IMG/VR virus record: IMGVR_UViG_3300035208_004923
Coordinates: 128,001 to 192,000 of that record
DNA: 64,000 bases
Strand: one strand, 5' to 3'
DNA from: a virus
Lineage: Duplodnaviria; Caudoviricetes
In this document: in pieces, positions 28,837 to 51,306 of the stretch
Position numbering within the stretch: the first letter of the stretch is position 1
Layout: each line of letters starts with the position of its first letter
Notes under the pieces: generated by a model
What the model saw: only the letters and a program-made list of their open reading frames with translations
Database searches by the model: none
Told to the model about the DNA's origin: nothing
Program-made: the position numbers and the translations under genes

Positions 28837-29199
28837 TTAGTTATTATATTTTGCATTTACTTTTTTCAAATGTTCGTCCCGCATTGTAATCATATTGCTG
28901 TCCAGCGTAAATAATTTTTCCCATGCGTCTGATAGTTTTTCTCCAAGTTTGTTCATTTCATGGTCAGTAGAAGGATCGTTACCATCTGTTAAAAAAATTG
29001 CAGCAAGTTCTTTATTTGTATCGCTATTTGCCGCAAGCGCTGTTACTCTTCCCCATTGTTCTATTTCAAAAATACCGATATGATTATAATATTTTGATTT
29101 TCGAAAATCTTTCAAGATTTCTTTAATTGGTCGTACAGTTTTTATTTTGTTCGATGATTCATTTATAAAGTCATCTAGACTAGGTATTCTTTTTTCCAT
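28837..29199 (-). CDS. tagged putative internal head protein
   Basis: N-terminus MEKRIPSLDDFINE. Confidence 0.55.
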   Translation of the reverse strand: MEKRIPSLDDFINESSNKIKTVRPIKEILKDFRKSKYYNHIGIFEIEQWGRVTALAANSDTNKELAAIFLTDGNDPSTDHEMNKLGEKLSDAWEKLFTLDSNMITMRDEHLKKVNAKYNN

Positions 29200-29208
29200 T
29201 TAAGTATT

Positions 29209-30030
29209 TTATTTTATAGAGTACAATGTAAATCTAAATCTACCAGTTTGTTTTTGAAACGCGCGTACTGGTACTTCAGCACCTCGTCTACTTGAATATG
29301 CAACAAAATCTTTATACGTTGCAGGTATAAGAGCAACTATTTCAACTTCGTTAGTAATTAATTTATGCGTTTGGTCATCTACTATTTTGAATTTATCACC
29401 GACTTTAAATCCTTCTGCAGACCATAACATCATTGACCCACCGTTTGTTGCGCCAAGTACACCATTTGGATAGTCATATATTGACCAACCGTGGCCCGTC
29501 TTTCCAGTTGCTGGTGCAATTTCGCCGGCTTTTATCACGTATAGCGTTTGAAGTCCTTCTTTATCTTTAACAAATTTAGAAATTTGTTCTTCGTATGTTT
29601 TGAATAAGAAATTCAGTAATTCAATAAAACCTGCAACTTTATCATCAGCTTCTATGCAATACTGAAGTTGTTGTGATTTCTTAATATTAAAATACAATGT
29701 ATTCATATTTACAGAAGCAGACATATCAAATTTATTATCGTATGTTGAAATAGTAACTCTGGCGTCATGTGAGCCATTCACATTTAAAACTAGTTCTGCG
29801 TTATTTGTATTTGTGTTTTCGATAAATGTAAAAAATCTTGATACGTCACCCCAATATTCCATATCTTTGAACGTAAAATTTGCATCCTTTATTTTATACG
29901 ACCATGATTTTAATGCCTTCACGCTATTTGCATTTGCATTATACTGCTTAATGTTAGCAGGCGATAAATCTTTCTTTTCATTTATTGATTCAAATAAGAA
30001 TTCATCAAAATTAGGTATTCTGTTTTTCAT
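29209..30030 (-). CDS. tagged putative internal head protein
   Basis: N-terminus MKNRIPNFDEFLFESINE. Confidence 0.55.
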   Translation of the reverse strand: MKNRIPNFDEFLFESINEKKDLSPANIKQYNANANSVKALKSWSYKIKDANFTFKDMEYWGDVSRFFTFIENTNTNNAELVLNVNGSHDARVTISTYDNKFDMSASVNMNTLYFNIKKSQQLQYCIEADDKVAGFIELLNFLFKTYEEQISKFVKDKEGLQTLYVIKAGEIAPATGKTGHGWSIYDYPNGVLGATNGGSMMLWSAEGFKVGDKFKIVDDQTHKLITNEVEIVALIPATYKDFVAYSSRRGAEVPVRAFQKQTGRFRFTLYSIK

Positions 30031-30039
30031 TTTTGCCTT

Positions 30040-30474
30040 TTATTTTAAAAGTTTGTTTTTGTTTATTTTGTATCTTCCATCTTCGCCGTAAAAGAGCGCA
30101 GACACTAACACAAGAGGTGTTGATTCACCCCATTGCTCAAGAACATTTATAAATTCGTCAGGCTTCATGTTCATTGTATTACTACCTTCAGAAATACGTG
30201 CAAAATCATTTGCACTTGTACTTGGTACAGGCGCACCAATTCTAAAGTATGTTTCTAATTTAAACGTTCTGTTATCAGATGTTGTAATTTCCAAATTGTA
30301 CTCCTCTTCCGTATATACGCCGTTAACAGCAGTAACTGTTATCGCAGGTTTTATTTGAAATTTGTCTGCTGCTTTTGTAAATGAACCTGCCCACTTTAAA
30401 TTGTCAGGATCTTCTAATGAATATTTTGCCTCGTTAATCAAAAAATCATTTAATGATGGTATTCTTTGTATCAT
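30040..30474 (-). CDS. tagged putative internal head protein
   Basis: N-terminus MIQRIPSLNDFLINE. Confidence 0.55.
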   Translation of the reverse strand: MIQRIPSLNDFLINEAKYSLEDPDNLKWAGSFTKAADKFQIKPAITVTAVNGVYTEEEYNLEITTSDNRTFKLETYFRIGAPVPSTSANDFARISEGSNTMNMKPDEFINVLEQWGESTPLVLVSALFYGEDGRYKINKNKLLK

Positions 30475-30488
30475 GTTTACTTTATTTT

Positions 30489-31217
30489 TTATAAGTTTCT
30501 TGCGTTTCCGATAGCATCACCATATGCTTTTGTCATCGGTAATAATTTTTCAATAGGTAAGTCGATTTGTAATGCACCTACTATCATATTAGGGTCGATA
30601 ATACATGCACCTAAAAATCTATGGTGACCGTCGATGATATAATTATCGCTACTTGTTATGAAAAATGTTTTCTTGTAGAATTCTGCAGATTTGTCGGCGC
30701 CAAATTTTGCAATTCCTTCAATAGATTTATCGAAGTAAATTTGCTGTTGTATTGGTTTAAGATCACCAACTTTAACTTTTTTCATTTGAACTTTAATTTT
30801 GTCATCGCTTGCAGATCCATCATTCAAACCATTTTTAAGCCATTCATCTGCCATTTTACCTTGCAACCCTTCTGGAAATGCATCTTCTGCTGATGCGTTA
30901 TTTCCACGGAATGGTGCGTGAACGTCAACAAATCCTTTAGATAATCTGTATTGTAACATCTTAACATCTGCGTCAGTAATAACTGGCATATCTTTTCTTT
31001 GAGTAAAACCAAGTTTTGCTAAATCTTGAGCGTATTTATAATTTTTATCAAAATCTGGAATTTCTTTATATGGATCCCATCCAATTGAATTTGCATATGC
31101 TAATGCAGATTTAAGTGTGGTGTGTACAAGTTCAAGTTTTCCAGCTTCTTGACCACCAGCTTCAAACATTTGTTGTTCAAAAATGTATTCATCTAATGTT
31201 GGTATTCTTTGCGCCAT
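30489..31217 (-). CDS. ParB/sulfiredoxin-like domain protein with N-terminal tag
   Basis: LKPIQQQI...IIDGHHRF; N-terminus MAQRIPTLDEYIFE. Confidence 0.7.
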   Translation of the reverse strand: MAQRIPTLDEYIFEQQMFEAGGQEAGKLELVHTTLKSALAYANSIGWDPYKEIPDFDKNYKYAQDLAKLGFTQRKDMPVITDADVKMLQYRLSKGFVDVHAPFRGNNASAEDAFPEGLQGKMADEWLKNGLNDGSASDDKIKVQMKKVKVGDLKPIQQQIYFDKSIEGIAKFGADKSAEFYKKTFFITSSDNYIIDGHHRFLGACIIDPNMIVGALQIDLPIEKLLPMTKAYGDAIGNARNL

Positions 31218-31232
31218 TGTTGTGTTATTATT

Positions 31233-31979
31233 TTAAAATTTATATTTGCCGTCTTTTAACGAATATGTATATTTATGAGCATCGGCTCTGTTGATAAATT
31301 CGCATGTGTATTTGCCAAATCTGGATTGCGGCGTTTTCCAGCCTTCTCCATAAAAATATTGAATGTATTCTGTTGTGCTAGATGGAACTGGTACATCGAA
31401 TCCTTTGAACGATACTGTATTTATTTTATCAGCATGTTTTTGGTCATACGTCATAACTTCCCATCCTGGCCATCTTAAAATACGTTTGCCATCTTTAAAT
31501 GGATATGAAACCATTAAATCACCAAACATACCTACAGTTGCACCGCCTGGACTTTTGAATGTTATTTTATTTCCGTCTTTATCTAAATCTTCTAGCCAAA
31601 CATAAAGCAATTCATGATAATCATCGTTCTCGTCAAACAATTTTTTAAATGATTGTTTTGAAGATGGTACTGCATAAAATGTTTTGTCTAAATCATCAAA
31701 AAAATCTTTATTTAATGTTTCGCCGAAAATTTGTAAATCTGTATCGTTGCGTATTAAATCGCCATCTCTAATAATTCCAAGTAATGTACCAAAATCAGCC
31801 ATGCACTTTACGCCATGTTTTTTGCAAATTGCAAGTTGTTTTTCTAAAAACTTGTATTTTGCTTCATTATACTTTTTATGAGTTTCGTCGTCAAGCTGTT
31901 TGTTTTTCTTTAACGTTGCTTCATACAAACGATCATAATCATTGCTGAATGCAACCCATGTAGGTATTCTATTTAACAT
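31233..31979 (-). CDS. licD: LicD-family phosphotransferase with N-terminal tag variant
   Basis: DFGTLLGIIRDG..I.NDTDL (DxD) and VPVP....YIQYFYG.GWKTP; N-terminus MLNRIPTWVAF...LYE. Confidence 0.78.
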   Translation of the reverse strand: MLNRIPTWVAFSNDYDRLYEATLKKNKQLDDETHKKYNEAKYKFLEKQLAICKKHGVKCMADFGTLLGIIRDGDLIRNDTDLQIFGETLNKDFFDDLDKTFYAVPSSKQSFKKLFDENDDYHELLYVWLEDLDKDGNKITFKSPGGATVGMFGDLMVSYPFKDGKRILRWPGWEVMTYDQKHADKINTVSFKGFDVPVPSSTTEYIQYFYGEGWKTPQSRFGKYTCEFINRADAHKYTYSLKDGKYKF

Positions 31980-32478
31980 TTATAAACCTTTTTTTAAATT
32001 CTTCTAAAGTCGGCAGTGTCCAATTCCAATCCCATATACAAATTGGGAAATGCTTATCGAAATTGTAGTATTCTTTATATCTTCGTATTTTCGATATATC
32101 TTTTCCAATTGGATATACATGAAAATGCCCAAATATGTTATATTCACAATTTGGGTAATCTTTTAAATCTATAGGTGTATGCGAATATGCAATGCCATCT
32201 AGTGTGTATGTTGTGTTATAAACTTCGTCAAATACTTCAAGATACTTTTCATTTTTTGCTGAATCGTGATTTCCTTTAACTAAAATCTTATATCCAGGTA
32301 ATGATTTAATTGTTTCTTTAACGTTGTCGAATTTACCTGCATGAACATCACCACAATGAATAACGATATCATTATTTGTTACTGAAGATTGCCATCCACT
32401 TATCTGTAAATTTGAATAATTTTCAGTTAAATATGCTGTTCCATTAAAGTGTGTGTCTGATGTTACGAATACGCTCAT
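31969..32478 (-). CDS. calcineurin-like metallophosphoesterase
   Basis: SDTHF, HCGD, KGNHD, SH.P, FGHFH; likely start MSVFV at 32478. Confidence 0.85.
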   Translation of the reverse strand: MSVFVTSDTHFNGTAYLTENYSNLQISGWQSSVTNNDIVIHCGDVHAGKFDNVKETIKSLPGYKILVKGNHDSAKNEKYLEVFDEVYNTTYTLDGIAYSHTPIDLKDYPNCEYNIFGHFHVYPIGKDISKIRRYKEYYNFDKHFPICIWDWNWTLPTLEEFKKRFINVK

Positions 32479-32530
32479 ATTAAATATATTTACAGTTATT
32501 GTAATATATATTCGTAACATTTATATGATT

Positions 32531-32875
32531 TTACATGCAATGTGCTCTATATTCTTCTATTATAATTTGACCATGGCAATAGTACTTGCCGCTTGTTGGA
32601 TTTTTCGGCATGCACCAGCATCCTAAAACTTTTCCTTCTAGTGTATGTAATTGTGATAAAAGGTATTCGTTAGACAATAAGTATTCTCTATATTTTTCAA
32701 TTGCTTCATCAACATTAGCAACTTTATATTTTGCTAATGTCCCTTCTTTATGCGAATACGGATTTCCCCATATTCCAACATCTCCGCATTTCAAACAACG
32801 GCCTCTTCCGATGTATACATCATAATCCGAATACCGTAAATTTATTACAGTTGGTTCGCTATTCTTGAACAGCAT
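32531..32875 (-). CDS. DUF4326-like protein
   Basis: YDVYIGR, WGNPY, LEGKVLGCWC.P, CHG. Confidence 0.8.
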   Translation of the reverse strand: MLFKNSEPTVINLRYSDYDVYIGRGRCLKCGDVGIWGNPYSHKEGTLAKYKVANVDEAIEKYREYLLSNEYLLSQLHTLEGKVLGCWCMPKNPTSGKYYCHGQIIIEEYRAHCM

Positions 32876-33614
32876 TATTAATTTCTTCTTGAGAAACATC
32901 TTTGATTTTTTTTGTAATATCGCGAATCACTGCGCATTTTTCGTAATCTTCCAATTCAGAAAAATATGTCATCATGTCAGATAATGTTTTTTTGACTTTA
33001 CCTGGCATAAATTTTATTACAACATCGCTATCTTCAAATAAAACAAGTTTGTTTATATCAATTCTTTTTCTATCCTTAATAGCATCAAACGCTCTTGTAT
33101 AAAACGTTGTTATGAACTCTGCTTCATTATCATCAATATCGCCTTCTTTATCTGGGTCAAACTGATATACAGTTTTTTCAGATTTAGTTGATTTGATTTT
33201 TTCTTTTAATTTATTCGATACTTTTTCAAATTCTTCTTGCGCATCAACATCATCATTCATAACTTGTTTATATAAGTATAATGCATTTTTTATTGACTTT
33301 ATTATACCTGCCTCCAGTTCTGGAATATCATATTTTCCATTTTCCGCAGTTGCAATTGGTGAGCCTTCGGGTAATTCACGGGCAGACATAATCAAAATGT
33401 TTCCGAAAACAGCAAATCTGAAGTACAAACTTCCAACAGAATTTAATTCACGTTCTTTTGACATATCAGTTGCAATAATAAAAGTGCCCATGTCAGCAAA
33501 CTTAATCGAATCTTCATCAGTTTCAAGTGAATTGGCAACACCTTTTATTGTGTACCGTTCGTTGTGCGGGTGCTCAACATTAAGATATCCATCTACCGTT
33601 ATTTTTACAGCCAT
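32859..33614 (-). CDS. hypothetical protein with C-terminal UVR-like motif
   Basis: EDYEKCAVIRD; class 2 motif at 33636-33659 upstream. Confidence 0.6.
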   Translation of the reverse strand: MAVKITVDGYLNVEHPHNERYTIKGVANSLETDEDSIKFADMGTFIIATDMSKERELNSVGSLYFRFAVFGNILIMSARELPEGSPIATAENGKYDIPELEAGIIKSIKNALYLYKQVMNDDVDAQEEFEKVSNKLKEKIKSTKSEKTVYQFDPDKEGDIDDNEAEFITTFYTRAFDAIKDRKRIDINKLVLFEDSDVVIKFMPGKVKKTLSDMMTYFSELEDYEKCAVIRDITKKIKDVSQEEINNAVQE

Positions 33615-33648: not shown

Positions 33649-34740
33649 TTATTTAGTTTCTAAGTATAAAATGTAATTATTGAATTCATATAAGAATTTT
33701 GCAATATCTTCAATTGTTAAAGTTCCGATGTTAGAAATTCTAAATGTATTTGTATTCGATACTTTTCCTGGATATATTGTAATGCCTCTTTCCTTTAAAA
33801 AGTCATGCATATCATCAAATGAATATTTTGGATGTTCCAAATCAAAAAAACTTGTTATGATAACAGACGAATGCTCTTCTGGCGTATATTGTTTAACGCC
33901 AGCAACTTTCATGCCGTTAATCAACAACGTTCTATTATTTTTATAACGATTATGTCTACCGCCAACAGTTTCACTTGTTAATTCCTTTATTGCTTGATAA
34001 AAAGCATATATTGTTTGAACAGGTGGTGTAAATCTTAATTGCAAATTTTTCTGCATGTAATCCCATTGGTCGTATACATCAAAATAACAAGTTCTTGCTT
34101 GACCTTTTAGTTCCATTAATTTTTCTCGTCTAGCAATTATAAATCCAATGCCTGCAAATCCTTGTATGCATTTATTTGAACTTCCTATTAAAAAATCAAC
34201 ATTACTTTTTGTCATTTCTATTTCATATGCACCAACAGTACTCATTGCATCAATAATAAATGTCTTGTTATTTTCTTTACATAAATTTCCTATAAAGTCA
34301 ATATCATTTAGTATTCCTGTTGTCGTTTCGCAATGAACTGTATACACATGTGTTATATCCGGATTCGTTTCAATTAATTTAGATATCATTTCATAATTTA
34401 AAACTTTATCGCCACAGTCAATTTCAAACAAACGTATAGCGTATCTTTTTGCAATTTCTGCTGCTCGTCTACCGTATGCACCGTTTGTAATAACTAGTAG
34501 AAATGAATCTTTCGGCAAAGATGATATCATCGCTTCTATTGCACCGGTACCTGATGAACCAAATAAAATTGATTCATATCGTAAATGGTCAGTTGCAACA
34601 AATGTTGGCAAATGTACCATTATTGCATTCATGATACCACCAAATTCACGTTCTCGTGGACAAATATCGTCAACAATTTGTGCTTGCTTTACGCTTTCTG
34701 ACGTATTTGCAGGCCCAGGATTTAAAAGAATTTGTTTCAT
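33649..34740 (-). CDS. aepZ: 2-aminoethylphosphonate transaminase (AepZ/PhnW family, PLP)
   Basis: LLNPGP, SGTGAIE, NGAYG, HCETTTG, DAMS, SSNKC (PLP Lys), RFTPP, IYPGK. Confidence 0.92.
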   Translation of the reverse strand: MKQILLNPGPANTSESVKQAQIVDDICPREREFGGIMNAIMVHLPTFVATDHLRYESILFGSSGTGAIEAMISSLPKDSFLLVITNGAYGRRAAEIAKRYAIRLFEIDCGDKVLNYEMISKLIETNPDITHVYTVHCETTTGILNDIDFIGNLCKENNKTFIIDAMSTVGAYEIEMTKSNVDFLIGSSNKCIQGFAGIGFIIARREKLMELKGQARTCYFDVYDQWDYMQKNLQLRFTPPVQTIYAFYQAIKELTSETVGGRHNRYKNNRTLLINGMKVAGVKQYTPEEHSSVIITSFFDLEHPKYSFDDMHDFLKERGITIYPGKVSNTNTFRISNIGTLTIEDIAKFLYEFNNYILYLETK

Positions 34741-35462
34741 TATAAGATATTGTATAAAAGTGGGAATACTCTATTAACTGCTTTATAGTAATGAATAAGA
34801 TCATCGATTTCACACCATACATAATCAGTTTTCTCTAAATTGAATTGTACGCCATATTTTTTAGTTGCTTTAACTAAAACATGTTCATATTCAATTCTTG
34901 GATTATTTTTTAAGATATCTTCAGCGAATGGTAACAATACATTATTAACAGTATTTGCTGAAATGTGAGAAATTCCTAAAAATGAATGCTCGTGATTTTC
35001 CAAATCAGATGTTAATTTCGATACATTACTCATGCAATTGTTGAAAGATTCAACATAAACTTCATCATGATCTTTTGTTATGAATGATGTTACAATAATG
35101 TCTTTGTCGTTACCTATATGGTCAAGAATCTTTGCATCATATAAAATATCACTTTCAACAATCGTACATGCACCTTTCACTTCTTTCAAACCTACATACA
35201 AAGAATATCCGCTTCCACTGTCAACGTAATTGCCATTATGAATTGTTGACACTTCTTTATATCCTTTGGCAAATTTTTCGTAGTATTCAGATTTATGTCC
35301 TGTTACAATTAATATCTTTTCATAACCTTTTTTCAATAAATTTTCAACGGACATTTCAATCAATGATTTTCCGCAGATTCTTAAAAAGCCTTTTGGCATA
35401 GTTTCAGTTAGTAAACCGACCCTGCTTCCAAGACCTGCTGCTAGTATGATTGCTGTTTTCAT
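34740..35462 (-). CDS. phosphonate/phosphocholine cytidylyltransferase (PntC/LicC-like)
   Basis: ILAAGLGSR, MPK, GSGYSL, ESDILY, WCEIDD; located in AEP cluster. Confidence 0.85.
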   Translation of the reverse strand: MKTAIILAAGLGSRVGLLTETMPKGFLRICGKSLIEMSVENLLKKGYEKILIVTGHKSEYYEKFAKGYKEVSTIHNGNYVDSGSGYSLYVGLKEVKGACTIVESDILYDAKILDHIGNDKDIIVTSFITKDHDEVYVESFNNCMSNVSKLTSDLENHEHSFLGISHISANTVNNVLLPFAEDILKNNPRIEYEHVLVKATKKYGVQFNLEKTDYVWCEIDDLIHYYKAVNRVFPLLYNIL

Positions 35463-35467
35463 TATTT

Positions 35468-36601
35468 TTATTTTTTTAAAAATTTCATTAATCGTTTCTT
35501 AACTTGTACTGGTGTAACTGCTGGTCGACCTAAAGGATCTTTTGAACCAGGAACTGTTGGCACAACAATTAGCTTCAATGTTCTTTCTTTATCTTTTTTC
35601 CAATTAGTTAATGCATTTTCTAATTGGCCGTATGATCTAACAATAGCATTTTGGTAATTCATAGAAGACGCTAGTTTATTCCATGATACGTTATTCGATA
35701 ATGTAGCTTGTCCGCCTGTTGTGTCGTGAACATTATTATCAAGTAATATATGTAGCATGTTTGATGGCGCATATTCTGCAATCAATGGAAGAACACTTAA
35801 ACGCATTAATGCAGCACCGTCTCCATCAATGACATATACTTTTTTATCTGTATTCAACGCAACACCTAAGCCAATTGCACCAGCGCAACCCATCGAACCG
35901 ACCATATACAAGTTATTTTTCTTATCTTTTATATCATACAATTCTCTGCCTGTCATTCCTGTTGTTGCGATATAAACAGCATCTTTGTCAATTGTTGAAA
36001 TTGATTTAAGTACCTCATATCGAGTCATGTCCATAACTTCTTGATTCAATGTATTTGCAAAGCCAATTGGCGCAACATCTTTTAATGTTTTTTGCTTTGG
36101 AATTAACTTAACAGAATTAAAAGTATCTTTTTCAACAAGAATAAAATATGGCATATTAGTTTTTGCCATTATTGCTTTTGCTTCTGCTATCTGTTGTTTT
36201 GCAATTTCATCATCTTTCGATAAAACAACGGATTTCATTTTCATTGTTTTTATCAATTTTGCAGTAATCACGCCCATTAATTCATGTTGAGGTTCAGTGT
36301 CAGAACCGGTTCGCATACTAACAAAAACCAATGATGGAATTTTGAATATGTAATTTAATGAAGTAAGTGGGGAAACTGCATTTCCGAATCCGGAATTTTG
36401 CATCATGACAACTGTATTTCGACCTGCTATGTGTGCGCCTGCAGCTATTGCAATTGCATCACCTTCATTTGCTGCATTGTAATATTCACAATCATTTTGC
36501 GCATAATTAATTAAACTTTTCATCCAAGAGCAAGGAACTCCTGTAAAAAAATCAAATCCTTCTTGTTTTAAAAAATCTCCAAATTTTTGTGTGTCTACCA
36601 T
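35468..36601 (-). CDS. ppd: phosphonopyruvate decarboxylase
   Basis: GVPCS, ANEGDA, MQNSGFGNAVSPL, EPQHELMG, GSMG, DGDGA...NN (TPP binding), TGGQ. Confidence 0.93.
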   Translation of the reverse strand: MVDTQKFGDFLKQEGFDFFTGVPCSWMKSLINYAQNDCEYYNAANEGDAIAIAAGAHIAGRNTVVMMQNSGFGNAVSPLTSLNYIFKIPSLVFVSMRTGSDTEPQHELMGVITAKLIKTMKMKSVVLSKDDEIAKQQIAEAKAIMAKTNMPYFILVEKDTFNSVKLIPKQKTLKDVAPIGFANTLNQEVMDMTRYEVLKSISTIDKDAVYIATTGMTGRELYDIKDKKNNLYMVGSMGCAGAIGLGVALNTDKKVYVIDGDGAALMRLSVLPLIAEYAPSNMLHILLDNNVHDTTGGQATLSNNVSWNKLASSMNYQNAIVRSYGQLENALTNWKKDKERTLKLIVVPTVPGSKDPLGRPAVTPVQVKKRLMKFLKK

Positions 36602-36615
36602 ATTATGTATTTTAA

Positions 36616-37911
36616 TTATTTTGTTCCTGGTATTAATTCAAGTATATCATTTATACTCATGCATAATGTTTTATCAACATTTTCTGATTTGCCGTCTAAA
36701 AGAATTCCTTTTGCTGTTTTTAGCATTGCTGGATATGCAGAACGTAATAAATGATTTGCATAAATCACTATATTAGCACCAGCTTTTTCAAATTCATCAA
36801 TATGAATTTTATTGAAACTAGAAGGAACTACAACGATAGGTGTTTGTTTATCGAATTCTCTAAATCTTTTAATAAATTCAAATATTTCTACACCGTCTTT
36901 ATTTCTTGAATGTATCATGATAGCATCAGCACCTGCGTTAACATAAGCAAACGAACGTTCTAGTGCATCTTCTAATCCTTTTTCTAAAATTAAACTTTCG
37001 CATCTAGCAATGATCATAAAGTTTTTTGTTATCTGCGCAGCTTTACCCATTTTTATTTTATGACAGAAGTCACAAATACAATCCTGCGACTGGTCAACAT
37101 CATTTCCAAATAATGAATTTTTCTTCAAACCAGTTTTATCTTCAATTATTGCAGCAGATACGCCAACACGTTCTAAACTTCGAACTGTAAATTGAAAATG
37201 TTCAGGTTTACCGCCTGTATCGGCATCATATATCATCGGTTTTGTTGTTACCTCAAATATTTCATTTATTGTTGTAAGACGAGCAGTTGTATCAACAGCT
37301 TCAATATCAGGTTTGCCTTTCGATGTAGAATCGGTCAAAGAACTTGACCACATGCCATCAAACTGCGTGTTATCAATTTTTGTGTGTTCGACAATTAATC
37401 CGCTTAAAGCATTATGAACTTCAAGTATTCTTAGAATTTTCTTTTCACGCAATAATCTTCGCAATGAATTACTTCTAACTGTTGATGTTATACCTAATGC
37501 AGTTACTTGTTCTTTTATATTGATACTGTTGATTTCTTTTGAATATTCTGGCTCAATTAATTCGCCATGAATTTCTAATATGTAATCTAATACTTCATCT
37601 CTATATTTCTTCAGGTGATTTGTTTTCCAATCAGTTCCATGAACAACTATAGTAGCACCAATTTTTTTTAAATTTGGTAGGCATGATGCAGATTCTTGTG
37701 GAATAATTTCAGACACGCACCCAATTGCGGCAATTGCAATTCTTCTATTTTCATATGATAAATAAGGAACGTCGTTTATTTCCCTACATGCATCTTCAGT
37801 TAGTAATCCTACAATTACTTTGCCATGTTTACTTGCTTCTGTTAAAATTGATACATGACCTGCGTGTATCAAATCAGCAATCATGCTAACATAAACTATT
37901 GTTTCATTCAT
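36616..37911 (-). CDS. pepM: phosphoenolpyruvate mutase with N-terminal cytidylyltransferase domain
   Basis: Diagnostic EDKTGLKKNS (EDKxxxxxNS), DADTG, IARCES; N-terminal DLIHAGH. Confidence 0.95.
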   Translation of the reverse strand: MNETIVYVSMIADLIHAGHVSILTEASKHGKVIVGLLTEDACREINDVPYLSYENRRIAIAAIGCVSEIIPQESASCLPNLKKIGATIVVHGTDWKTNHLKKYRDEVLDYILEIHGELIEPEYSKEINSINIKEQVTALGITSTVRSNSLRRLLREKKILRILEVHNALSGLIVEHTKIDNTQFDGMWSSSLTDSTSKGKPDIEAVDTTARLTTINEIFEVTTKPMIYDADTGGKPEHFQFTVRSLERVGVSAAIIEDKTGLKKNSLFGNDVDQSQDCICDFCHKIKMGKAAQITKNFMIIARCESLILEKGLEDALERSFAYVNAGADAIMIHSRNKDGVEIFEFIKRFREFDKQTPIVVVPSSFNKIHIDEFEKAGANIVIYANHLLRSAYPAMLKTAKGILLDGKSENVDKTLCMSINDILELIPGTK

Positions 37912-37934
37912 TTGTTTTTGTATAAAGTGTAAAT

Positions 37935-37981
37935 AAAAATTAGCATAATTTTTTAGATTATGCTAATTTTATTATATATTC
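37935..37981 (-). promoter_or_regulatory. hairpin plus class 3 motif GAATATATAA upstream of the phosphonate operon
   Basis: AAAATTAGCATAAT/ATTATGCTAATTTT inverted repeat; motif at 37972-37981. Confidence 0.5.
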
Positions 37982-39844
37982 TTATTTTAATTCGCATCCG
38001 CCAGATCCGCATGCCAATTCTCCAGATAAATCTGTTTCATCAGTGCCTTCGTGAATTTGCGTAACGTCAACAAATTTCAAATGTTGAATTCTTCTGTTAT
38101 ATTCTTCTTCTGTAATTTCTTCAAACGGTGCTTGAATGTATGTTCCTCCGTCATACGGAAGTACTGATAAACCATTATAGTATTTTCTGTTTTCCCACAT
38201 CCATTCGCCTACTGCTTCCCATTCGTTTTCTTTTATGAAAACTGTTGCAGATACGTTGTTGTAATTTTCACCTTTTCGGTGACCGCCATATACCCATTTA
38301 GTATTGAACTTTTTGATTCGATTTAAGAATGCAAATATTGATTCATCACGAGTTATTGCATCAGAAGGCGATTTTTGTGGCACTTCAATAATTCCAGTGT
38401 CATGTGGTCTGAAGTAATCATCAACCACAAGTTCAGGATGATTTGCTGCTAAGAATTTGTAAAGTGTTTCGTTTTTACCAATTCGCATTCTTCGAATGTA
38501 ATATTTTGCAAACCAAGCGTGAATACCTGATGATGTACCAAGAACAAGCGAACTAGTACCTGCAGGTTTTACGGTTGTTGTTCTTGCCGCTTTACTAATT
38601 TTCAATAAATCAGCAGCACGTGCGTTTTCTTCTTTAACCGCTTTTGCAGCATCTTTCATATCGAGATTCAATATTCCTTGTGAAGCAATACCTGTCATAC
38701 CTACACCAACAAGTGCATCTTTTTCAGTTGTTCGTTGCCAAATTGAACGTAAGTAATGGAATTCTGTATAACTTGCTTGTAACGTTCCAATGAAAGATGC
38801 AGCTCTACAACGTGCATTCAATTCTTCTTGGTCATATACATTTGATACGTTTACTTCTGTTAGATTGCAAAATTGAAATGGCTTTAATGCAATTTCACCG
38901 CAAGGATTTGTTCCCCAATCTTTATCATTTGAAAAAATAAATCCTGGTTCGCCAGCACCCGATGCTTGAATTTTTTTGAACAAATCAACAAAGAATTCTT
39001 TGCTAATTTTATGTCTCATTAGTAATGCTGAATTGTTTGCTCGTCCTCTTTGTGGGTTACGTTCCCACCAATCTCCAAATTTACAAGTTAACATTGTTTC
39101 ATCATCAGCAGAGAATAAAGAAATTAATGCAGCTCTACGAATACCGCCTGCCAATACGGCATCAGCAATGTAACAAACAATGTCATGAACTTCTAATGTT
39201 GTTAATGAATCGCCTGTATTTTTTTGGTCAAAAATCCCCTTTACTTTAATGATACATTCCTTCAAAGGTTGTGGTCCTGGTGCTTTTCCACCTGATGTTA
39301 CAAGTTGTGCACCTTTTTGTCGAATATCTGCAAAGTCAAAATTGATTGTTGAACCGCCAAAGAAATATGATTTCATTAAAACTTTTATTGCATCAGCCCA
39401 TCCTTCAATTGAATCACCGATTAAGTATCGTCTGTTTCTGTCAGGATTTGGTTTATTTATGAGCGGCAATTTTTCAACGTGATGACGTTGTACTGAATAA
39501 CCAATGCCCGTGCCTCCTAATAAAAGAAACATAATTTCGGAAAATGCACGCCAATCATCAATAGGTAAATAACCGCAGTTATAAATTCTATTAGGCGATA
39601 TTTCAATAGGTTTACCGCTAAATTGCATACTTCTCATTGACGGCAATACTTTCTTATCGTACACGTATTTATACGCAGCATTAATGTCTGCTTTTAGGTG
39701 TGGATATTTTTTGATATGCATTGCCTTGTTTCTTGTAACAAGTTCATCCCATGTTTCTCTTCTACCAAGATCCTTGTCAAATCTTGCGTATTTTGTAAAA
39801 ATTGTTAAGTCGCTTAACGTTTTAATGTCTAAATTTTCTTCCAT
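37982..39844 (-). CDS. nrdJ: class II (adenosylcobalamin-dependent) ribonucleotide reductase
   Basis: KYAR, RETW, PSMR, YNC, GGIRRAA, TNPCGEI, VKPAGTSS, C-terminal ACGSGGCE. Confidence 0.92.
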   Translation of the reverse strand: MEENLDIKTLSDLTIFTKYARFDKDLGRRETWDELVTRNKAMHIKKYPHLKADINAAYKYVYDKKVLPSMRSMQFSGKPIEISPNRIYNCGYLPIDDWRAFSEIMFLLLGGTGIGYSVQRHHVEKLPLINKPNPDRNRRYLIGDSIEGWADAIKVLMKSYFFGGSTINFDFADIRQKGAQLVTSGGKAPGPQPLKECIIKVKGIFDQKNTGDSLTTLEVHDIVCYIADAVLAGGIRRAALISLFSADDETMLTCKFGDWWERNPQRGRANNSALLMRHKISKEFFVDLFKKIQASGAGEPGFIFSNDKDWGTNPCGEIALKPFQFCNLTEVNVSNVYDQEELNARCRAASFIGTLQASYTEFHYLRSIWQRTTEKDALVGVGMTGIASQGILNLDMKDAAKAVKEENARAADLLKISKAARTTTVKPAGTSSLVLGTSSGIHAWFAKYYIRRMRIGKNETLYKFLAANHPELVVDDYFRPHDTGIIEVPQKSPSDAITRDESIFAFLNRIKKFNTKWVYGGHRKGENYNNVSATVFIKENEWEAVGEWMWENRKYYNGLSVLPYDGGTYIQAPFEEITEEEYNRRIQHLKFVDVTQIHEGTDETDLSGELACGSGGCELK

Positions 39845-40007
39845 TTTCAAATTATGTTAAAATTAAAAAGCGGAATACACAAGGTTCCTTGCCAAAGAAC
39901 ATTATGTATCCGCTTGTGTTATTTTGTGTATGTAAAATTCATATTTAATGATTGATATTAATATATATTCATTACGAATAATGTTTTTATTAAAAAAAAG
40001 CTTATTT

Positions 40008-41399
40008 TTATATTTTTTCTAACTCAGCTTTCAATTTCTTAAGTTCCTGTATTTCATTTTGAACAGCAAACATTTGTTTCTTTGCGGATTTTCTTTGTCC
40101 ATAAAAATCAGTTAAAATTGTTCTAAATACAGAATCTTCGGCATCATTAAAATACGCGCCAGATGCAGTGTATGTAATGTTTTCAATATCTGGTTTCTTT
40201 GCTTCTTTACCCATGAATGCTTCAGGTGACATATTCCATTGTCGCATAATAGATGGGTACAGTGATGCAAAGTCAAAAGAAGCAACCCAATCGTATATTC
40301 CTTTTACGGGTGGAAATACAAAGGCACCTTCGTAACCTGTTTTATTTACGTTTCGGTTTTTGATTGTTGGGAATATTCGATTTCTGCCGTAGAATTCACG
40401 AGTCATCACAGATTCAGCCATTGCGATTGGTGAGAATGCTCTATTTGCTTCAACCTTTGTAATGTTACCCAATTTTAAATATGTTGACATTGTTGATAAC
40501 TTTGCATCAATCAATTTTACAAGAATTGAATCGACGCCATTATAGTAAACATATTGTTCAAAATCAGATTCATATAAATCCTGAAGTGTTCCGTTGTACG
40601 GAATTTTACCCATACCCAATGCTGCAGTTGCAACATATTGTAGCGTATTGTTATCTTTGAAGATTACTCTATCCCATTTTTTATAAAGTTCCATGTAATC
40701 GACAACAACTCTGTGCATCGGTAATTCTTCACGACCTACAAGTTTGCCATTTACTGCTGCAACAGATGGGTCAATTGATAAATTACGACAACGATTTACA
40801 AGATACGCCCAGTCAAAGTTTATAAAGTTCCATCCGGTAATCAATGGCATTTTTTGTATTGCCTTATTGAAAAATGAATATAACAAATCATATTCTGTTT
40901 TGAAATAAACATATGAAAACTTAATTTCTGGATAATTATGATCTGTTAAGTACTTGTTTATTTTGATTTCGATATTTCTTATCTGAACGGGAAGCAATGG
41001 TTTTGTTCCTAATACAGCAAGCATATTATCGTGCGCAAATGATATTGCGGTTACCTTATGTCTTGCAACAGATGGTTTTGGCCATTCATCATCAACTTCA
41101 GTTTCAATATCCACAAAGAATTTCTTTGGGTCATTTTTTGAATAAATCTTTTCTTTAATGTAATCTGGCTGTTTCATGAGAATTTCCTCAATTCTCCATT
41201 TGTTCAAAAAGAAAGCTTTTTTCTTTTGAACTAATTTGCCATCCCAACTTTTGAATGAAGGTTCCGCTTTTCCTACGGTATATGGAACCCATTCAAAAAA
41301 ATCCTCTTGTTCTATAGGAATTATTTGGAAAGCAACATCTCCATTTTCATCGAAGTAAGATACCTTAAGGTTTTTCTCTACTTGTTCGACGTTAATCAT
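40008..41399 (-). CDS. family B DNA polymerase, N-terminal subunit (3'-5' exonuclease + motif A)
   Basis: DIET (ExoI), GWN...FD..YL (ExoII), YNGVD (ExoIII), YEGAFV, SFDFASLYPSIM, RKSAK. Confidence 0.92.
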   Translation of the reverse strand: MINVEQVEKNLKVSYFDENGDVAFQIIPIEQEDFFEWVPYTVGKAEPSFKSWDGKLVQKKKAFFLNKWRIEEILMKQPDYIKEKIYSKNDPKKFFVDIETEVDDEWPKPSVARHKVTAISFAHDNMLAVLGTKPLLPVQIRNIEIKINKYLTDHNYPEIKFSYVYFKTEYDLLYSFFNKAIQKMPLITGWNFINFDWAYLVNRCRNLSIDPSVAAVNGKLVGREELPMHRVVVDYMELYKKWDRVIFKDNNTLQYVATAALGMGKIPYNGTLQDLYESDFEQYVYYNGVDSILVKLIDAKLSTMSTYLKLGNITKVEANRAFSPIAMAESVMTREFYGRNRIFPTIKNRNVNKTGYEGAFVFPPVKGIYDWVASFDFASLYPSIMRQWNMSPEAFMGKEAKKPDIENITYTASGAYFNDAEDSVFRTILTDFYGQRKSAKKQMFAVQNEIQELKKLKAELEKI

Positions 41400-43371: not shown

Positions 43372-43746
43372 TTACATCAAATTACTTGTTCCGCCTTGAT
43401 ATGTTCCAGTGCTTACACGTATTAATGTATCAATATGTAATTCTTTGTAATAATCGCTATACCCTAAATTTGCATCAGTATTTTTGTAACGTTCAATAAT
43501 TGGAACAAATGCAAATATTCTGTTACTGCTGAGTCCTAAACCAATAAAATATCTGCCGTATTCTTGCCATACTGTAATTTCTCTAGTTTTCCAGCCAAGT
43601 CCTTGTATAAATTGAATTTCTTCTACAAGAGCAGGCGGTAAATCTTTTAATTTCAAATCTTTCTTTGTGCTTTCATCTCTTAATTGCAAAACAAGTTTGC
43701 TTTCGTTCAACGAAAATTCTTCTAATGTTGGTATTCTTTGTTTCAT
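43372..43746 (-). CDS. tagged putative internal head protein
   Basis: Likely start MKQRIPTLEEFSLNE at 43746. Confidence 0.55.
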   Translation of the reverse strand: MKQRIPTLEEFSLNESKLVLQLRDESTKKDLKLKDLPPALVEEIQFIQGLGWKTREITVWQEYGRYFIGLGLSSNRIFAFVPIIERYKNTDANLGYSDYYKELHIDTLIRVSTGTYQGGTSNLM

Positions 43747-48109: not shown

Positions 48110-48445
48110 TTATCTTGTTTTTCCTTTTTGAATAACATCTGCAAAAACAGAATCTTCAGTTTTGAACAAATTCTTCAAATTATAAGTTTTTCGTAATTTT
48201 TCGATATCATCGAATGACGTTATCTTATGTGCAGTTACAATGTGCGGTCCGCTACTTGTACGTGCATCTTTATTTGCATCATCTTTATCTTCCCATACGT
48301 ATGCGTATTTTCTGTCTTGGTCATTCGTATAGTAATGCATAGTTATATAAATTGGATAATGCGGTTCAGTTTTTATGCCAAGAGTGTATTCATATATTGA
48401 ATTTTCTTTTATATAGTCGTCTAGACTAGGTATTCTTCGGTTCAT
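48110..48445 (-). CDS. tagged putative internal head protein
   Basis: N-terminus MNRRIPSLDDYIKE. Confidence 0.55.
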   Translation of the reverse strand: MNRRIPSLDDYIKENSIYEYTLGIKTEPHYPIYITMHYYTNDQDRKYAYVWEDKDDANKDARTSSGPHIVTAHKITSFDDIEKLRKTYNLKNLFKTEDSVFADVIQKGKTR

Positions 48446-48451
48446 AATAAT

Positions 48452-50410
48452 TTAAAATTTTAATGCAGAAATTATTTGGTGTATAGGTGCAAATGCGCCT
48501 GTTAATTTGAACAATCTTCCACCATAATTGAAACAAATGCCTTCAGATGGAAATATTGCATCGATGCCACCTGCATTTTCCAATGATTGTAAATGAATTT
48601 TCAATTTTGCTAAAGCGCCTTCATCGCCTGATTTATTTATATCGTCTATTGCTTTATTAAAGTCAGCTTTTAATTGATTAAGTGATGCATCAGGATTTGG
48701 CGCAAGTATTGTTTGTAAACTTTTAATTATTGCAACACCTACTTGTACAAAAATTGTTCCAACGATTCTTTTTATTTCGCCACCTATTTTTGCGGCGTCC
48801 TTTGCTTCAAAATCTTTGGCCCATGCTAATGTTTTTTCATCAGGAATGTTATCTTTGTTTATTCTAAATGATTTGTCATCAGTTAGCCATCGGCCAATCA
48901 AACCTGCCAATTGAACATCTGTTAATGAATAACCCATTTTTAATATTCTATCTTTCCATTCAGCAGTATAAAAATCTAAGAACGTGTTATTATCTTTAAA
49001 ATTCCATTTTGCTTTTATTTCATCAACCTTTGCATTGAAATACGTTTTTTCTTTATCAAAATTTACGCCATCTTTTAATTTAACATAAGGCGAGCCTTGT
49101 ATTTTAAATGTTTTTTCGATATCTTTATTAATATCTGCTATCATTTTTGCAAGCTTATCTGCCGCTGCACGATCTTGTGATAATGGATTGCCGGCTGTAT
49201 CATATTCAGTCACGTTATGAAATACCATTAAGTTTGTATTGTACGGTACCGTAATCATTGCAGGCGAATAGATTACTTCAAGATGCATGAAGCATTTTCC
49301 ATTTTTAAATATACTTTCAAGATCTTTTTTGTTAAGATCTTTTATTGCATCTTCAAGATCATCGAATGCAAGGTTATATGCATCAGCAATAGGTCCTCTA
49401 CCTGCAAATTTTGCCATTAACGCATTTTTATCAACTGCGTTTTCACCAAAATTCTTATATTCACCTTTATTTCTTGCTGTAACAATTTTTCCATCTTTGT
49501 AACTAATTGCAATTGTAACGCCATCAGTTTTTTCAACGGTATTCTCTAATTTGCCTGAAAGTCCAAGATTTATAATTTCTTTCATTTGTCCAAATGTAAT
49601 TGTCAAATCATCATAAACATGTTCAAGATGACCGAATGCGCCGCCTTCATCAATTCCTGCAAAACCTTTAAATGCATTTGGACCCATAAACATTCCATCC
49701 AAGTCTTTCCATCCATTCGGATAATATTCCGCGTAATCTTTACAAACGGCAGGATGCGTTTCATTAGATTCTTTTATTGAATTTAATTTAGTATTCAATA
49801 AATTAAAAATGCCTGCATCTAGTTTCTTGTATATTTTTTTAAAGAAATTTTCTTTATCTTTTATTGCGTGGCTATTATCTCTGAAATAGTTGCGTACTTC
49901 TGTTGCACTCATGTTAACAGATGGCGAATTTTCTTGTACATAGATATATCCTTTTGTTTCATATCCATCAAGTTCAACATTGTCATTGTATATGTCAAAG
50001 TATTTTCCTCTTGTTAATCGTTCAGCATCTTTACCACCAAGAACAGTAATCAATGCAGTATCTTTTGTAAACATTGTAAGCAATTCGGTAGGTGCATAAG
50101 TATTTTTTACTTTAACAATTTTTGATGGCGGTATTTTAAACATTTTTGTCATTATCAATTTTTTCTCATCAAAAGACAAGAAATGATTATCGTCATACGC
50201 TGCCTTGCCTACTTCAGATTGATTAAGATCTCCGGTTGTTATGTATACATTTTCTTTGCCAAATTTTGCAACTAATTGTTCATATATATCGAAATGCCCG
50301 ATATGAAAAGGCTGAAATTTGCCACTGTAACTAACAACAAAATTTCCATTTTTATTTGTTTCATTAATAAATTGTTCCAGCGTTTTAAGTTTGCTTATTT
50401 CTATTTTCAT
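48452..50410 (-). CDS. HIGH-family nucleotidyltransferase fused to a ligase-like (DUF6267-like) domain
   Basis: SGKFQPFHIGH and MSATEVR in the N-domain; GHLEH, EKTDG and SEGICF in the C-domain; tag-like KLKTLEQFINE. Confidence 0.7.
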   Translation of the reverse strand: MKIEISKLKTLEQFINETNKNGNFVVSYSGKFQPFHIGHFDIYEQLVAKFGKENVYITTGDLNQSEVGKAAYDDNHFLSFDEKKLIMTKMFKIPPSKIVKVKNTYAPTELLTMFTKDTALITVLGGKDAERLTRGKYFDIYNDNVELDGYETKGYIYVQENSPSVNMSATEVRNYFRDNSHAIKDKENFFKKIYKKLDAGIFNLLNTKLNSIKESNETHPAVCKDYAEYYPNGWKDLDGMFMGPNAFKGFAGIDEGGAFGHLEHVYDDLTITFGQMKEIINLGLSGKLENTVEKTDGVTIAISYKDGKIVTARNKGEYKNFGENAVDKNALMAKFAGRGPIADAYNLAFDDLEDAIKDLNKKDLESIFKNGKCFMHLEVIYSPAMITVPYNTNLMVFHNVTEYDTAGNPLSQDRAAADKLAKMIADINKDIEKTFKIQGSPYVKLKDGVNFDKEKTYFNAKVDEIKAKWNFKDNNTFLDFYTAEWKDRILKMGYSLTDVQLAGLIGRWLTDDKSFRINKDNIPDEKTLAWAKDFEAKDAAKIGGEIKRIVGTIFVQVGVAIIKSLQTILAPNPDASLNQLKADFNKAIDDINKSGDEGALAKLKIHLQSLENAGGIDAIFPSEGICFNYGGRLFKLTGAFAPIHQIISALKF

Positions 50411-50482
50411 TTTATTGAATTATATTATGTGGATAATTAGATTCTGACATACTTGAAAATCTTCTAATTCTCATATTTTCTA

Positions 50483-51286
50483 TTAGTAACGGCCGTATGC
50501 AGATTGATTTTCAAAAGAACCTGCTATGAATTCTTTGCCATCAACTTTAACAGTAACAACCGATGACCATCTTTGTGTATCTATTTGAACAAAACCGATA
50601 GAGTTATGAATAGTGTCACTACTAATGCTTGTGTTATTTTTATCAATTTCAATTTTTGATGTAGGTGTAACTTTTACTTTATTTTTCTTAAGTCCGTCTA
50701 GCGTCATTGTTAATACTTTAGTAAAATCTGAACCAGCATAGGCAGAATAACTTGTCTTTCTTGCTACAGCTACTGCTACATTTAATAACGATGCAGCTGC
50801 ATCAGATGTCCATGATTTTAATACATTTATAATATTTGTTAATGCATCTCTCATTGCAGGTAAATCTTTATTTGCTGCTTTAAATTCAGGTTCTATTCTT
50901 TTTATTGCATCTGACAAAGGACCTTGCGATCTTCCGCCTGGCGCAGCATCAGTGTATAAAAATGCAACAAATTCAATAATAGGTGCAGATGCAACACCTG
51001 TTTTTAAATATGTAGTTGCAGATTTAATAACTTCTTTAAATTTTTCAACTGGTGCTTCATCTCCAAAGTATGTATATCGCAATCCTGCTGTTGGCCATCC
51101 TGCTTCATAATGAAACAATGAACATACTGTTCTTATTTCACCTTTTAAATAAGTTTTAAATGTAGTTGTTTTTTCAAGACCGTGACGAGTTGCAAACTCA
51201 AGTCCTGATTCCTCAATTGCTTCATTAATTGCATTCGATTTTTCTATGAATATAAATTCATTCAATGATGGTATTCTATTTTTCAT
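50483..51286 (-). CDS. tagged putative internal head protein
   Basis: N-terminus MKNRIPSLNEFIFIE...INE. Confidence 0.55.
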   Translation of the reverse strand: MKNRIPSLNEFIFIEKSNAINEAIEESGLEFATRHGLEKTTTFKTYLKGEIRTVCSLFHYEAGWPTAGLRYTYFGDEAPVEKFKEVIKSATTYLKTGVASAPIIEFVAFLYTDAAPGGRSQGPLSDAIKRIEPEFKAANKDLPAMRDALTNIINVLKSWTSDAAASLLNVAVAVARKTSYSAYAGSDFTKVLTMTLDGLKKNKVKVTPTSKIEIDKNNTSISSDTIHNSIGFVQIDTQRWSSVVTVKVDGKEFIAGSFENQSAYGRY

Positions 51287-51306
51287 AATATGTTTTTATT
51301 TATTTT

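Follow-up and report, generated by a model that had tools for sequence, protein, structure and literature searches.

A Lak-like tailed megaphage encodes a predicted route to CMP-activated 2-aminoethylphosphonate and a candidate LicD-type transferase with a phage-specific leader

The window analysed here is a 64,000-nucleotide stretch of viral DNA (bases 128001-192000 of the 425,361-bp contig IMGVR_UViG_3300035208_004923), and it contains four adjacent minus-strand genes (33649-37911; positions are those of the window unless stated otherwise) whose products would together convert phosphoenolpyruvate (PEP) to CMP-2-aminoethylphosphonate (CMP-AEP), the activated form of 2-aminoethylphosphonate (AEP). 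Our data indicate that the contig is a Lak-like tailed megaphage. They further indicate that the four genes form an accessory cassette within its lineage together with a downstream gene for a LicD/FKRP-type phosphotransferase, which may well use CMP-AEP and which carries an N-terminal leader common to 49 phage proteins. The transferase, the accessory nature of the cassette and the presence of PEP mutase (PepM) genes in other viral contigs all go beyond an earlier note on this DNA, which had described the four-gene operon.

We found that the four open reading frames (ORFs) are separated by 14 nt and 5 nt and that the last two overlap by 1 nt; the co-orientation and spacing given in the earlier note are thus exact by ORF coordinates. 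Its gene identities also held when compared with profile models, since genes 1, 2 and 4 pass NCBIfam equivalog cut-offs and gene 3 is identified by a full-length match to the structure 6PD1. Gene 1 (36616-37911, 431 aa) fuses a Fom1-type cytidylyltransferase (CyTase) domain (residues ~1-135) to a PEP mutase domain (~145-431), with matches to CTP_transf_like and PEP_mutase, and scores 401.8 bits against the PEP mutase equivalog TIGR02320 (cut-off 319.55). Its EDKTGLKKNS motif conforms to EDKX5NS, which sets PEP mutase (Ppm) apart within the isocitrate-lyase superfamily, and is invariant across a 23-sequence PepM alignment; in addition, D58, D85, D87, E114, K120, N122, S123, R159 and H190 of Mytilus PEP mutase (1M1B) are identical in gene 1. 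The N-terminal domain contains HAGH (HxGH) and matches the Fom1 cytidylyltransferase 5X3D (E 2e-24) and PF01467 (E 1.4e-8), and it would be a second activating enzyme.

The second gene (35468-36601, 377 aa) encodes a phosphonopyruvate decarboxylase (Ppd) that scores 368.5 against TIGR03297 (cut-off 312.5) over model positions 1-360 of 360 and contains the GDG...NN thiamine-diphosphate motif. Gene 3 (34740-35462, 240 aa) encodes a PntC-type CTP:2-aminoethylphosphonate cytidylyltransferase, residues 2-236 of which match the nucleotidyltransferase half of Treponema denticola PntC (6PD1) with E 2.5e-43; the match to LicC (1JYK, E 9e-14) is far weaker. The protein contains LAAGLGSR (GxGxR), and its Glu103 and Glu193 align with Glu104 and Glu196 of Tde-PntC, which contact the AEP amine. 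Gene 4 (33649-34740, 363 aa), whose start overlaps the PntC stop by 1 nt, encodes an AEP transaminase (AEPT) of the biosynthetic AepZ type: it scores 399.9 against the biosynthetic model TIGR03301 (cut-off 360.8) and 345.6 against the catabolic model TIGR02326 (PhnW), which is under the cut-off of 400.8. Its top PDB match is the aminotransferase half of T. denticola 6PD1 (E 2e-83), with which its pyridoxal-phosphate lysine motif SSNKC aligns.

Together these enzymes correspond to a known route from PEP to CMP-AEP, as the earlier note had stated, and the catalytic residues are kept in all four. The PepM domain would form the C-P bond by converting PEP to phosphonopyruvate, and Ppd would then draw this unfavourable equilibrium forward by yielding phosphonoacetaldehyde. 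The AepZ-type transaminase would convert phosphonoacetaldehyde to AEP, which PntC would join with CTP to give CMP-AEP. Given the equivalog scores, the conserved catalytic residues and the characterised homologue, we consider it highly probable that the four genes specify these steps. A reading of the genes as an AEP degradation pathway was rejected, since PepM and Ppd are present and the transaminase passes the biosynthetic and not the catabolic model.

The candidate for the use of CMP-AEP is a 248-aa LicD/FKRP-type phosphotransferase (31233-31979, minus strand) with an M-x-x-R-I-P leader. LicD/FKRP enzymes take a phospho-head group off a donor activated with CDP or CMP and place it on a glycan hydroxyl, and the phage enzyme would likewise pass the aminoethylphosphonyl group from CMP-AEP to a glycan hydroxyl. 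PF04991 is carried by all six close orthologues of this protein, and the family alignment shows an invariant GTLLG-x2-R and DxD metal site with a conserved C-terminal YG-W-TP. Moreover, the family profile matches human FKRP (6KAJ, E 6e-11), and the top 13 Foldseek matches of the AF2 model (pLDDT 83) are all FKRP chains (E 3e-6, with a TM of only ~0.4). Family membership, together with co-occurrence with PepM in five megaphage genotypes, in an unrelated phage (L011) and in the bacterial template described below, makes transfer by this enzyme moderately likely. Several points weigh against this step. Taken alone, the protein scores under the Pfam cut-off of 22.6 for PF04991, with 20.1 bits (E 7e-4) by hmmscan and 19.9 bits in a genome search, which rises to 25.3 when neighbouring matches in frame are counted. 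Its donor and acceptor are both inferred. Finally, three genes of unassigned role part it from AEPT and it heads a run of leader-bearing genes, so its place may be in that run rather than in the pathway.

The genes around the cassette are those of a phage. The window encodes a portal, UvsX, a split family-B polymerase, topoisomerase II, a gp46/SbcC-like protein, a DnaB-like protein and an NAD ligase; the portal, UvsX, split PolB, topoisomerase II, SbcC-like and DnaB-like genes flank the cassette on both sides. The portal, which has a match in phrog_213, shares 44% identity with that of LR756500, a 462-kb uncultured huge phage, and 37% with those of Lak megaphages. The last ~4.6 kb of the contig repeats its start, and therefore the genome is circular or terminally redundant with a length of ~420.8 kb. 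Within this terminally overlapping contig the cassette lies ~160 kb inside and neighbouring phage genes are co-stranded with it. Directly upstream, as the earlier note had observed, is nrdJ (37982-39850, minus strand), which encodes a class II (B12-dependent) ribonucleotide reductase (RNR) with Pfam RNR barrel and RNR-II insertion domains (260 bits against TIGR02505, under its cut-off). This is a phage backbone gene, with 78-80% identity in relatives with and without the cassette. The exact PepM protein and its neighbours (dUTPase and PolB through nrdJ to ligase) recur in independent assemblies, one of them a contig of 379 kb. Because these assemblies carry the same linkage, a misassembled host island, which the earlier note had raised against its own reading, is excluded. 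DNA runs containing the stretch come from landfill, groundwater and wastewater.

The contig had been binned into a 1.6-Mb metagenome-assembled genome (MAG), and the rRNA operon of the bin is archaeal, as is its RpoB, which is unsplit and divergent. Since 94% of the phage contig genes lie on one strand and only 3% have Shine-Dalgarno (SD)-like sequences upstream, compared to 18-27% in the five other bin contigs checked, the placement in an archaeal MAG is probably a binning error caused by a composition artefact. The mis-binned megaphage probably inflates the size of this MAG. An archaeal host or archaeal element was rejected on SD usage, strand bias, the NAD-dependent ligase, the T4-type genes and the C1xA72 end of tRNA-Met, which is typical of bacterial initiators. 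Among the 53 tRNAs encoded by the contig (C1) are two of suppressor type, with anticodons TCA and CTA (contig positions 8783-8856 and 125640-125713), a hint that stop codons may be reassigned in part of the genome; the window ORFs read cleanly through under code 11. The family-B DNA polymerase is encoded by two genes ~21 kb apart, one for the exonuclease/N-terminal part and one for the C-terminal polymerase part (40008-41399 and 17713-18888). In another assembly, an nrdJ fragment of the same phage (L008:406-1443) has a weak intein-splicing match, and nrdJ may thus contain an intein in some strains.

We found the full cassette in at least five phage genotypes that share 54-75% identity (the window and the contigs L003, L108, L109 and L002), with ORFs and catalytic motifs intact in all five; the PepM proteins of related phages are 71-75% identical. 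L003 and L108 are syntenic with the window from dUTPase, PolB and nrdJ to PepM through LicD, and in L109 and L002 the cassette lies in other genomic contexts. L002 also holds two LicD genes, glycosyltransferases of the GT25 and Gly_transf_sug families, an Exo_endo_phos protein and the phage genes Acb1 and PhoH. A SAM-dependent methyltransferase gene lies between Ppd and PntC in L003 (9741-10436) and L002 (5921-6595), and also in the bacterial contig L030; the product of this variant may be a methylated AEP head group.

The genes between AEPT and LicD encode a 251-aa protein (32859-33614), a DUF4326 protein (32531-32899; PF14216, E 1e-16) and a small calcineurin-like metallophosphoesterase (31969-32520; PF00149 and PF12850), all on the minus strand. 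In the relative L021 (nrdJ 78% identical), nrdJ is followed by the 251-aa gene, DUF4326 and a 242-aa gene, and PepM to AEPT, the phosphoesterase and LicD are missing. Since L021 keeps the backbone genes but not the cassette genes, the cassette is accessory within the phage lineage and split in two pieces. The phosphoesterase, which precedes LicD in L003, L108 and L110, is gained or lost together with LicD. We dropped the 251-aa gene as a pathway enzyme: it belongs to a family of 43 representatives with no Pfam match, its AF2 model (pLDDT 88) has no PDB fold match (Foldseek E of at least 5e-3, VIA Z of at most 5.3), and it adjoins nrdJ in L021. Because it is present there with DUF4326, a backbone gene, it is probably a phage backbone gene outside the pathway. 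In a more distant contig (L022:2-4367), an RNR gene, an aminotransferase 36% identical to AEPT and a homologue of the 251-aa protein occur with no PepM between them, which suggests a recurrent module of the aminotransferase and the protein of unassigned function adjoining RNR.

We asked where the cassette came from. A tree of 87 PepM sequences places the seven phage proteins in a single clade (SH-aLRT 100, stem 0.58), which is nested in a fully supported set of Campylobacterales MAGs, SAR86 and two other bacteria; sequences from Bacteroidota fall in the opposite half. The nearest cellular PepM proteins (63-65% identity) are encoded by clusters in Campylobacterales MAGs (L024, L025 and L029) and in the unclassified bacterium L030, and the Campylobacterales cluster L029 has the same gene order as the phage, that is, CyTase-PepM, Ppd, a PntC::AEPT fusion and LicD; this LicD is 50% identical to the phage LicD over the best tblastn segment. 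Based on gene order, the nearest cellular PepM and LicD, and the nesting of the phage clade, the cassette looks to be a bacterial Pnt cluster that was captured and later diverged within the megaphage clade with its motifs intact. The link to Bacteroides suggested by the earlier note is not supported here, given that the nearest cellular PepM and LicD come from Campylobacterales MAGs and the habitats are landfill, groundwater and wastewater.

Our data indicate that the cassette is wired into phage regulation. The phage-specific, promoter-like motif GAATATATAA has 8 coding-strand copies in the window compared to 0.61 expected; on the coding strand of the contig there are 49 copies, of which 45 are intergenic and 35 lie 10-29 nt from an ATG. 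It leads genes with similarity to tail fibres, tail collars and head decoration proteins. The earlier note had stated that this motif precedes both the operon and virion-type genes. A copy is indeed present immediately past the nrdJ stop (37972-37981, minus strand), but it lies 60 nt from the pepM ATG and a terminator-like 14-bp hairpin with a U-run (37927-37970, minus strand) intervenes. This hairpin has a minimum free energy of -12.2 kcal/mol (z -5.08), and none of 200 shuffles folds as well. A consensus scan for sigma-70 promoters and terminators did not pick up the AT-rich hairpin, and its promoter-like sites were fewer than those in shuffles.

The arrangement varies among relatives. L002 has exact copies of GAATATATAA 17 nt before its LicD-PepM operon and 13 nt before its second LicD, and L003 has one 14 nt before its phosphoesterase-LicD pair. 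Also in L003, a copy with one mismatch lies 24 nt before pepM, on the downstream side of a hairpin, the reverse of the order in the window. L108 and L109 have no GAATATATAA before pepM, which begins 6 and 5 nt, respectively, past the preceding gene. The earlier note had proposed expression late in infection with the motif as its only basis; since the motif is off its usual distance before pepM, with the hairpin in between, and is missing in L108 and L109, the support for late timing is weak. Wastewater RNA libraries yielded contigs that cover the four genes and bridge all three junctions, mostly at 95-100% identity to the window; these contigs are a weak hint of expression. They come from four libraries of one study and leave several bins of the 8.6-kb stretch uncovered, and that they may derive from DNA counts against taking them as expression of the cassette.

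We next consider the leader of the transferase, which points to a possible route into the capsid. Among the 525 ORFs of the contig, 49 begin with M-x(1-4)-R-[IL]-P, compared to 0.6 in shuffled N-termini. The leader usually continues as -x-L-D-E-F-I-N-E, and most copies end in [ILF]-x-E. The LicD-like protein carries a degenerate form that ends in L-Y-E, with clearer forms in phage orthologues, and residues 1-25 are disordered in its AF2 model. The leader is absent from PepM, Ppd, PntC and AEPT, as well as from the 202-aa LicD of the Campylobacterales cluster L029. Canonical copies (M-x-x-R-I-P-x-L-D-E-F-I-N-E) are found on four small proteins (242, 144, 273 and 120 aa) encoded in the minus-strand run that the LicD-like gene heads (28837-31217). 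None of the four has a Pfam family above cut-off; the 242-aa protein belongs to a virus-only family, and atlas look-ups of the 242-aa and 273-aa genes returned solely virus-specific clusters with weak ParB-like leads. Beyond the genes at 28837-31979, leader ORFs are found at 43372-43746, 48110-48445 and 50483-51286 of the window, along with 41 further ORFs of the contig.

In T4, a 10-residue N-terminal capsid-targeting sequence ending in (I/L)-x-E loads unrelated proteins into the head for ejection (PMC9026906). The phage leader is similar to the capsid-targeting sequences of T4 internal proteins and Alt in that it would be a short N-terminal propeptide on unrelated proteins with an (I/L)-x-E end, and a gp21-type (T4) prohead protease is encoded at contig positions 280540-282591. 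It differs from the T4 sequence in its letters and in its 49 carriers. Because of this resemblance and the encoded protease, it is a reasonable inference that the LicD-like enzyme would be encapsidated and delivered with the DNA. It is rather doubtful that the loaded enzyme goes on to phosphonylate virion contents (i.e., cargo proteins or DNA) or, after ejection, targets in the newly infected cell. If it did, the phage would be delivering a carbon-phosphorus modification system, a virion or host modification of an undescribed kind. The leader on the transferase also gives a means of probing whether Lak-like megaphages have a large system for loading cargo. The stretch 48452-53554 may be a second modification cluster; it encodes a 652-aa protein whose N-terminal domain is cytidylyltransferase-like, a 267-aa protein that bears the leader, a protein similar to alanine dehydrogenase, and an ATP-grasp ligase. 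The ligase gene is led by GAATATATAA.

Which molecule would receive the AEP group? We tentatively prefer a host-made envelope glycan precursor, because the cassette derives from a cell-surface cluster and no glycosyltransferase adjoins it in this phage. The surface of the infected cell would then bear a phosphatase-resistant zwitterionic group, which might, for example, block superinfection or re-adsorption. Phosphonate decoration of cell surfaces is widespread in bacteria and poorly understood, and one proposal is that it defends them against phages and grazers; if the preferred reading is true, the virus itself installs such a phosphatase-resistant group, which reverses this idea. The phage would then also offer a compact set of four to six genes with which to probe what AEP tailoring does. 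Several observations count against a host envelope glycan. A capsid-loaded transferase would suit action on virion contents at least as well, and the position of the phosphonate cluster of L011 in a head module, together with the glycosyltransferases that L002 itself encodes, points to a phage-made glycan.

The same observations bear on the closest rival, a possibility that we regard as somewhat doubtful, in which AEP is placed on glycosylated capsid, tail or encapsidated cargo proteins to give a phosphonylated particle. The leader that the transferase shares with the other proteins of its set and the T4-type prohead protease would fit such a role. So would the use of exact GAATATATAA copies before tail-fibre-like and head-decoration-like genes, before the LicD and PepM units of L002 and before the phosphoesterase-LicD pair of L003. 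In L011, moreover, PepM, Ppd, a GT-A-like protein and LicD are encoded between portal and cement/capsid genes, and L002 adds the GT25 and Gly_transf_sug enzymes. However, this phage has no glycosyltransferase beside its cassette, pepM is seemingly co-transcribed with non-structural genes in L108 and L109, and the function of the leader is itself putative.

Transfer of AEP to phage DNA (e.g., to 5-hydroxymethylcytosine or a sugar carried by this base) would be a new hypermodification, and we consider it very unlikely. The cassette does lie within a block of nucleotide-metabolism and replication genes (dUTPase, PolB, nrdJ and ligase), but this adjacency to RNR may merely mark a region that tolerates insertions. 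Similar proximity is seen in Vibrio phage Va2, where a divergent pair of PepM-like and Ppd-like genes flanks the RNR genes, and in L022, where an AEPT-like aminotransferase follows an RNR gene. The contig also encodes a thymidylate-synthase homologue (L105:1366-2214; contig C1 ~242.6-243.4 kb), the best PDB match of which is T4 dCMP hydroxymethylase (1B49, E 4e-19), with Asp at the D179 specificity position; as judged from this homologue, the phage DNA probably contains 5-hydroxymethylcytosine. On the other hand, we know of no LicD/FKRP enzyme reported to act on nucleic acid, the gene order is that of bacterial cell-surface clusters, and no DNA glycosyltransferase or 5-hydroxymethylpyrimidine kinase was identified.

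Slightly less credible still is the idea that CMP-AEP supplies phosphonolipid head groups, or that AEP is a soluble metabolite or a store of phosphorus; in both cases the LicD-like gene would be unrelated. CMP-AEP is the established phosphonolipid donor in organisms that make phosphonolipids, and the separation of the LicD-like gene from AEPT by three genes, at the head of the leader run, would suit this idea. Against it, the cassette encodes no CDP-alcohol phosphatidyltransferase, LicD is gained and lost with PepM (present in L003, L108, L109 and L002, not in L021), and LicD directly follows AEPT in the bacterial template. Finally, that the genes are mere passengers (i.e., recently captured from a host, wrongly binned or assembled, or decaying without a role in infection) is highly improbable: the other contigs of the MAG are archaeal and no Ppm was found in 364 huge-phage genomes or RefSeq viruses (Li and Horsman 2022), but the cassette lies deep inside a terminally overlapping contig among co-stranded phage genes, keeps its order in independent assemblies, is intact in five divergent genotypes, has a PepM clade with a long stem, is led by phage-type motifs and includes a transferase that has acquired a phage-specific leader.

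We questioned whether PepM occurs in other viruses. Li and Horsman (2022, PMC8942020) found Ppm in only one nucleocytoplasmic large DNA virus (NCLDV) MAG among viral genomes, with none in the huge phages or RefSeq viruses, and a 2025 paper reported a PepM-CyTase fusion in a Borg (PMC12660748). Both are likewise large viral or mobile genomes with PepM beside glycan genes; however, the NCLDV is a eukaryotic giant virus and the Borg an archaeal extrachromosomal element, so neither is a tailed phage. Full-text literature searches found no description of a tailed-phage phosphonate pathway, in agreement with the earlier note, whose author knew of no characterised one; the surveys of auxiliary metabolic genes in phages that we consulted report phosphonate catabolism genes and not pepM. 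In INPHARED, five records matched and none is a complete phage with a true PepM.

The earlier note had also called for a survey of pepM in viral contigs, and a pattern scan of IMG/VR yielded 24 contigs with a true-motif EDKX5NS PepM (L111-L134). These scans depend on patterns, and the counts are therefore lower bounds: a single-protein scan gave 0 matches and the first alignment one locus, and the 24 required a more diverse alignment. The PepM proteins are 46-55% identical to that of the window (37-48% in three partial matches), and the contigs are unrelated to this megaphage clade. Those with a PepM-Ppd pair include a 189-kb terminal-repeat genome, one contig with TerL and one T4-like contig with TerL and gp23. 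Most of the 24 have no detectable PntC, AEPT or LicD homologues and look like hydroxyethylphosphonate-type clusters. A search of five IMG/VR records for NCLDV capsid proteins gave 0 matches and is uninformative, as the controls also gave 0. As far as we found, viral PepM is present in public data yet undescribed within the literature searched, and the full cassette of AEP synthesis, CMP-AEP formation and a leader-tagged LicD is specific to this megaphage clade. The cassette may represent a new class of auxiliary metabolic gene, one for C-P bond formation, given that only catabolism genes are viral in the literature searched. If the pathway works as predicted, it would also bear on the sources of environmental phosphonates, given the true-motif PepM of the 24 IMG/VR contigs, including the T4-like one.

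Several individual loci deserve mention. The 189-kb genome with terminal repeats (L125, IMGVR_UViG_3300007511_000001), a complete viral genome, has PepM-Ppd next to genes for a TagF-like glycerophosphotransferase, GDP-mannose dehydratase, a DegT aminotransferase and an Fe-alcohol dehydrogenase, and this locus looks like a hydroxyethylphosphonate glycan island. The unrelated 48-kb phage L011 (L128, IMGVR_UViG_3300031552_000007) encodes CyTase-PepM, Ppd, a GT-A-like protein and LicD without AEPT, and its cluster, which sits between the terminase/portal and cement/capsid genes, is a second, independent phage phosphonate cluster. In the cultured Vibrio phage Va2 (MW073017, 104.8-112.7 kb), the RNR alpha/beta genes lie between a divergent PepM-like gene (EDKX6NS, 89 bits) and one similar to Ppd (152 bits), next to a GalE-like epimerase gene; this may be a divergent phosphonate pathway. 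Two small putatively viral faecal contigs named 'Bacteriophage sp.' encode PepM proteins of 47-48% identity.

Among known systems, the cassette is most similar to the Pnt pathway of T. denticola (Tde1413-1415; 6PD1/6PD2), which has the same Ppm, Ppd, AEPT and PntC families with LicD-like phosphotransferases nearby. Rice et al. (2019, PMC6697681) described AEP clusters with LicD-like phosphotransferases as a phosphonyl-tailoring pathway in which PntC forms CMP-AEP. Each half of Tde1415 has its match in the phage, one in PntC and the other in AEPT, with the AEP-binding Glu pair kept. Unlike the T. denticola system, the cassette is phage-borne, PntC and AEPT are separate genes with a 1-nt overlap and not a fusion, three phage backbone or accessory genes lie between AEPT and LicD, and the phage LicD has an extra leader-bearing N-terminus of ~45 residues. 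The Campylobacterales clusters differ in being cellular loci with TagD-like and other glycopolymer genes, as well as in their shorter LicD. Fom1 of Streptomyces wedmorensis (5X3D) has the same two-domain CyTase-PepM architecture (PF01467 and PF13714) with HxGH, and cytidylylates hydroxyethylphosphonate en route to fosfomycin; in contrast to that system, the phage has an aminotransferase and a separate PntC, and no fosfomycin tailoring genes were found at its cassette. The Lic pathway (LicC/LicD) of S. pneumoniae and H. influenzae and human FKRP likewise pass a CMP- or CDP-activated head group to a glycan hydroxyl by means of a LicD fold, whereas the phage donor would be CMP-AEP rather than CDP-choline or CDP-ribitol.

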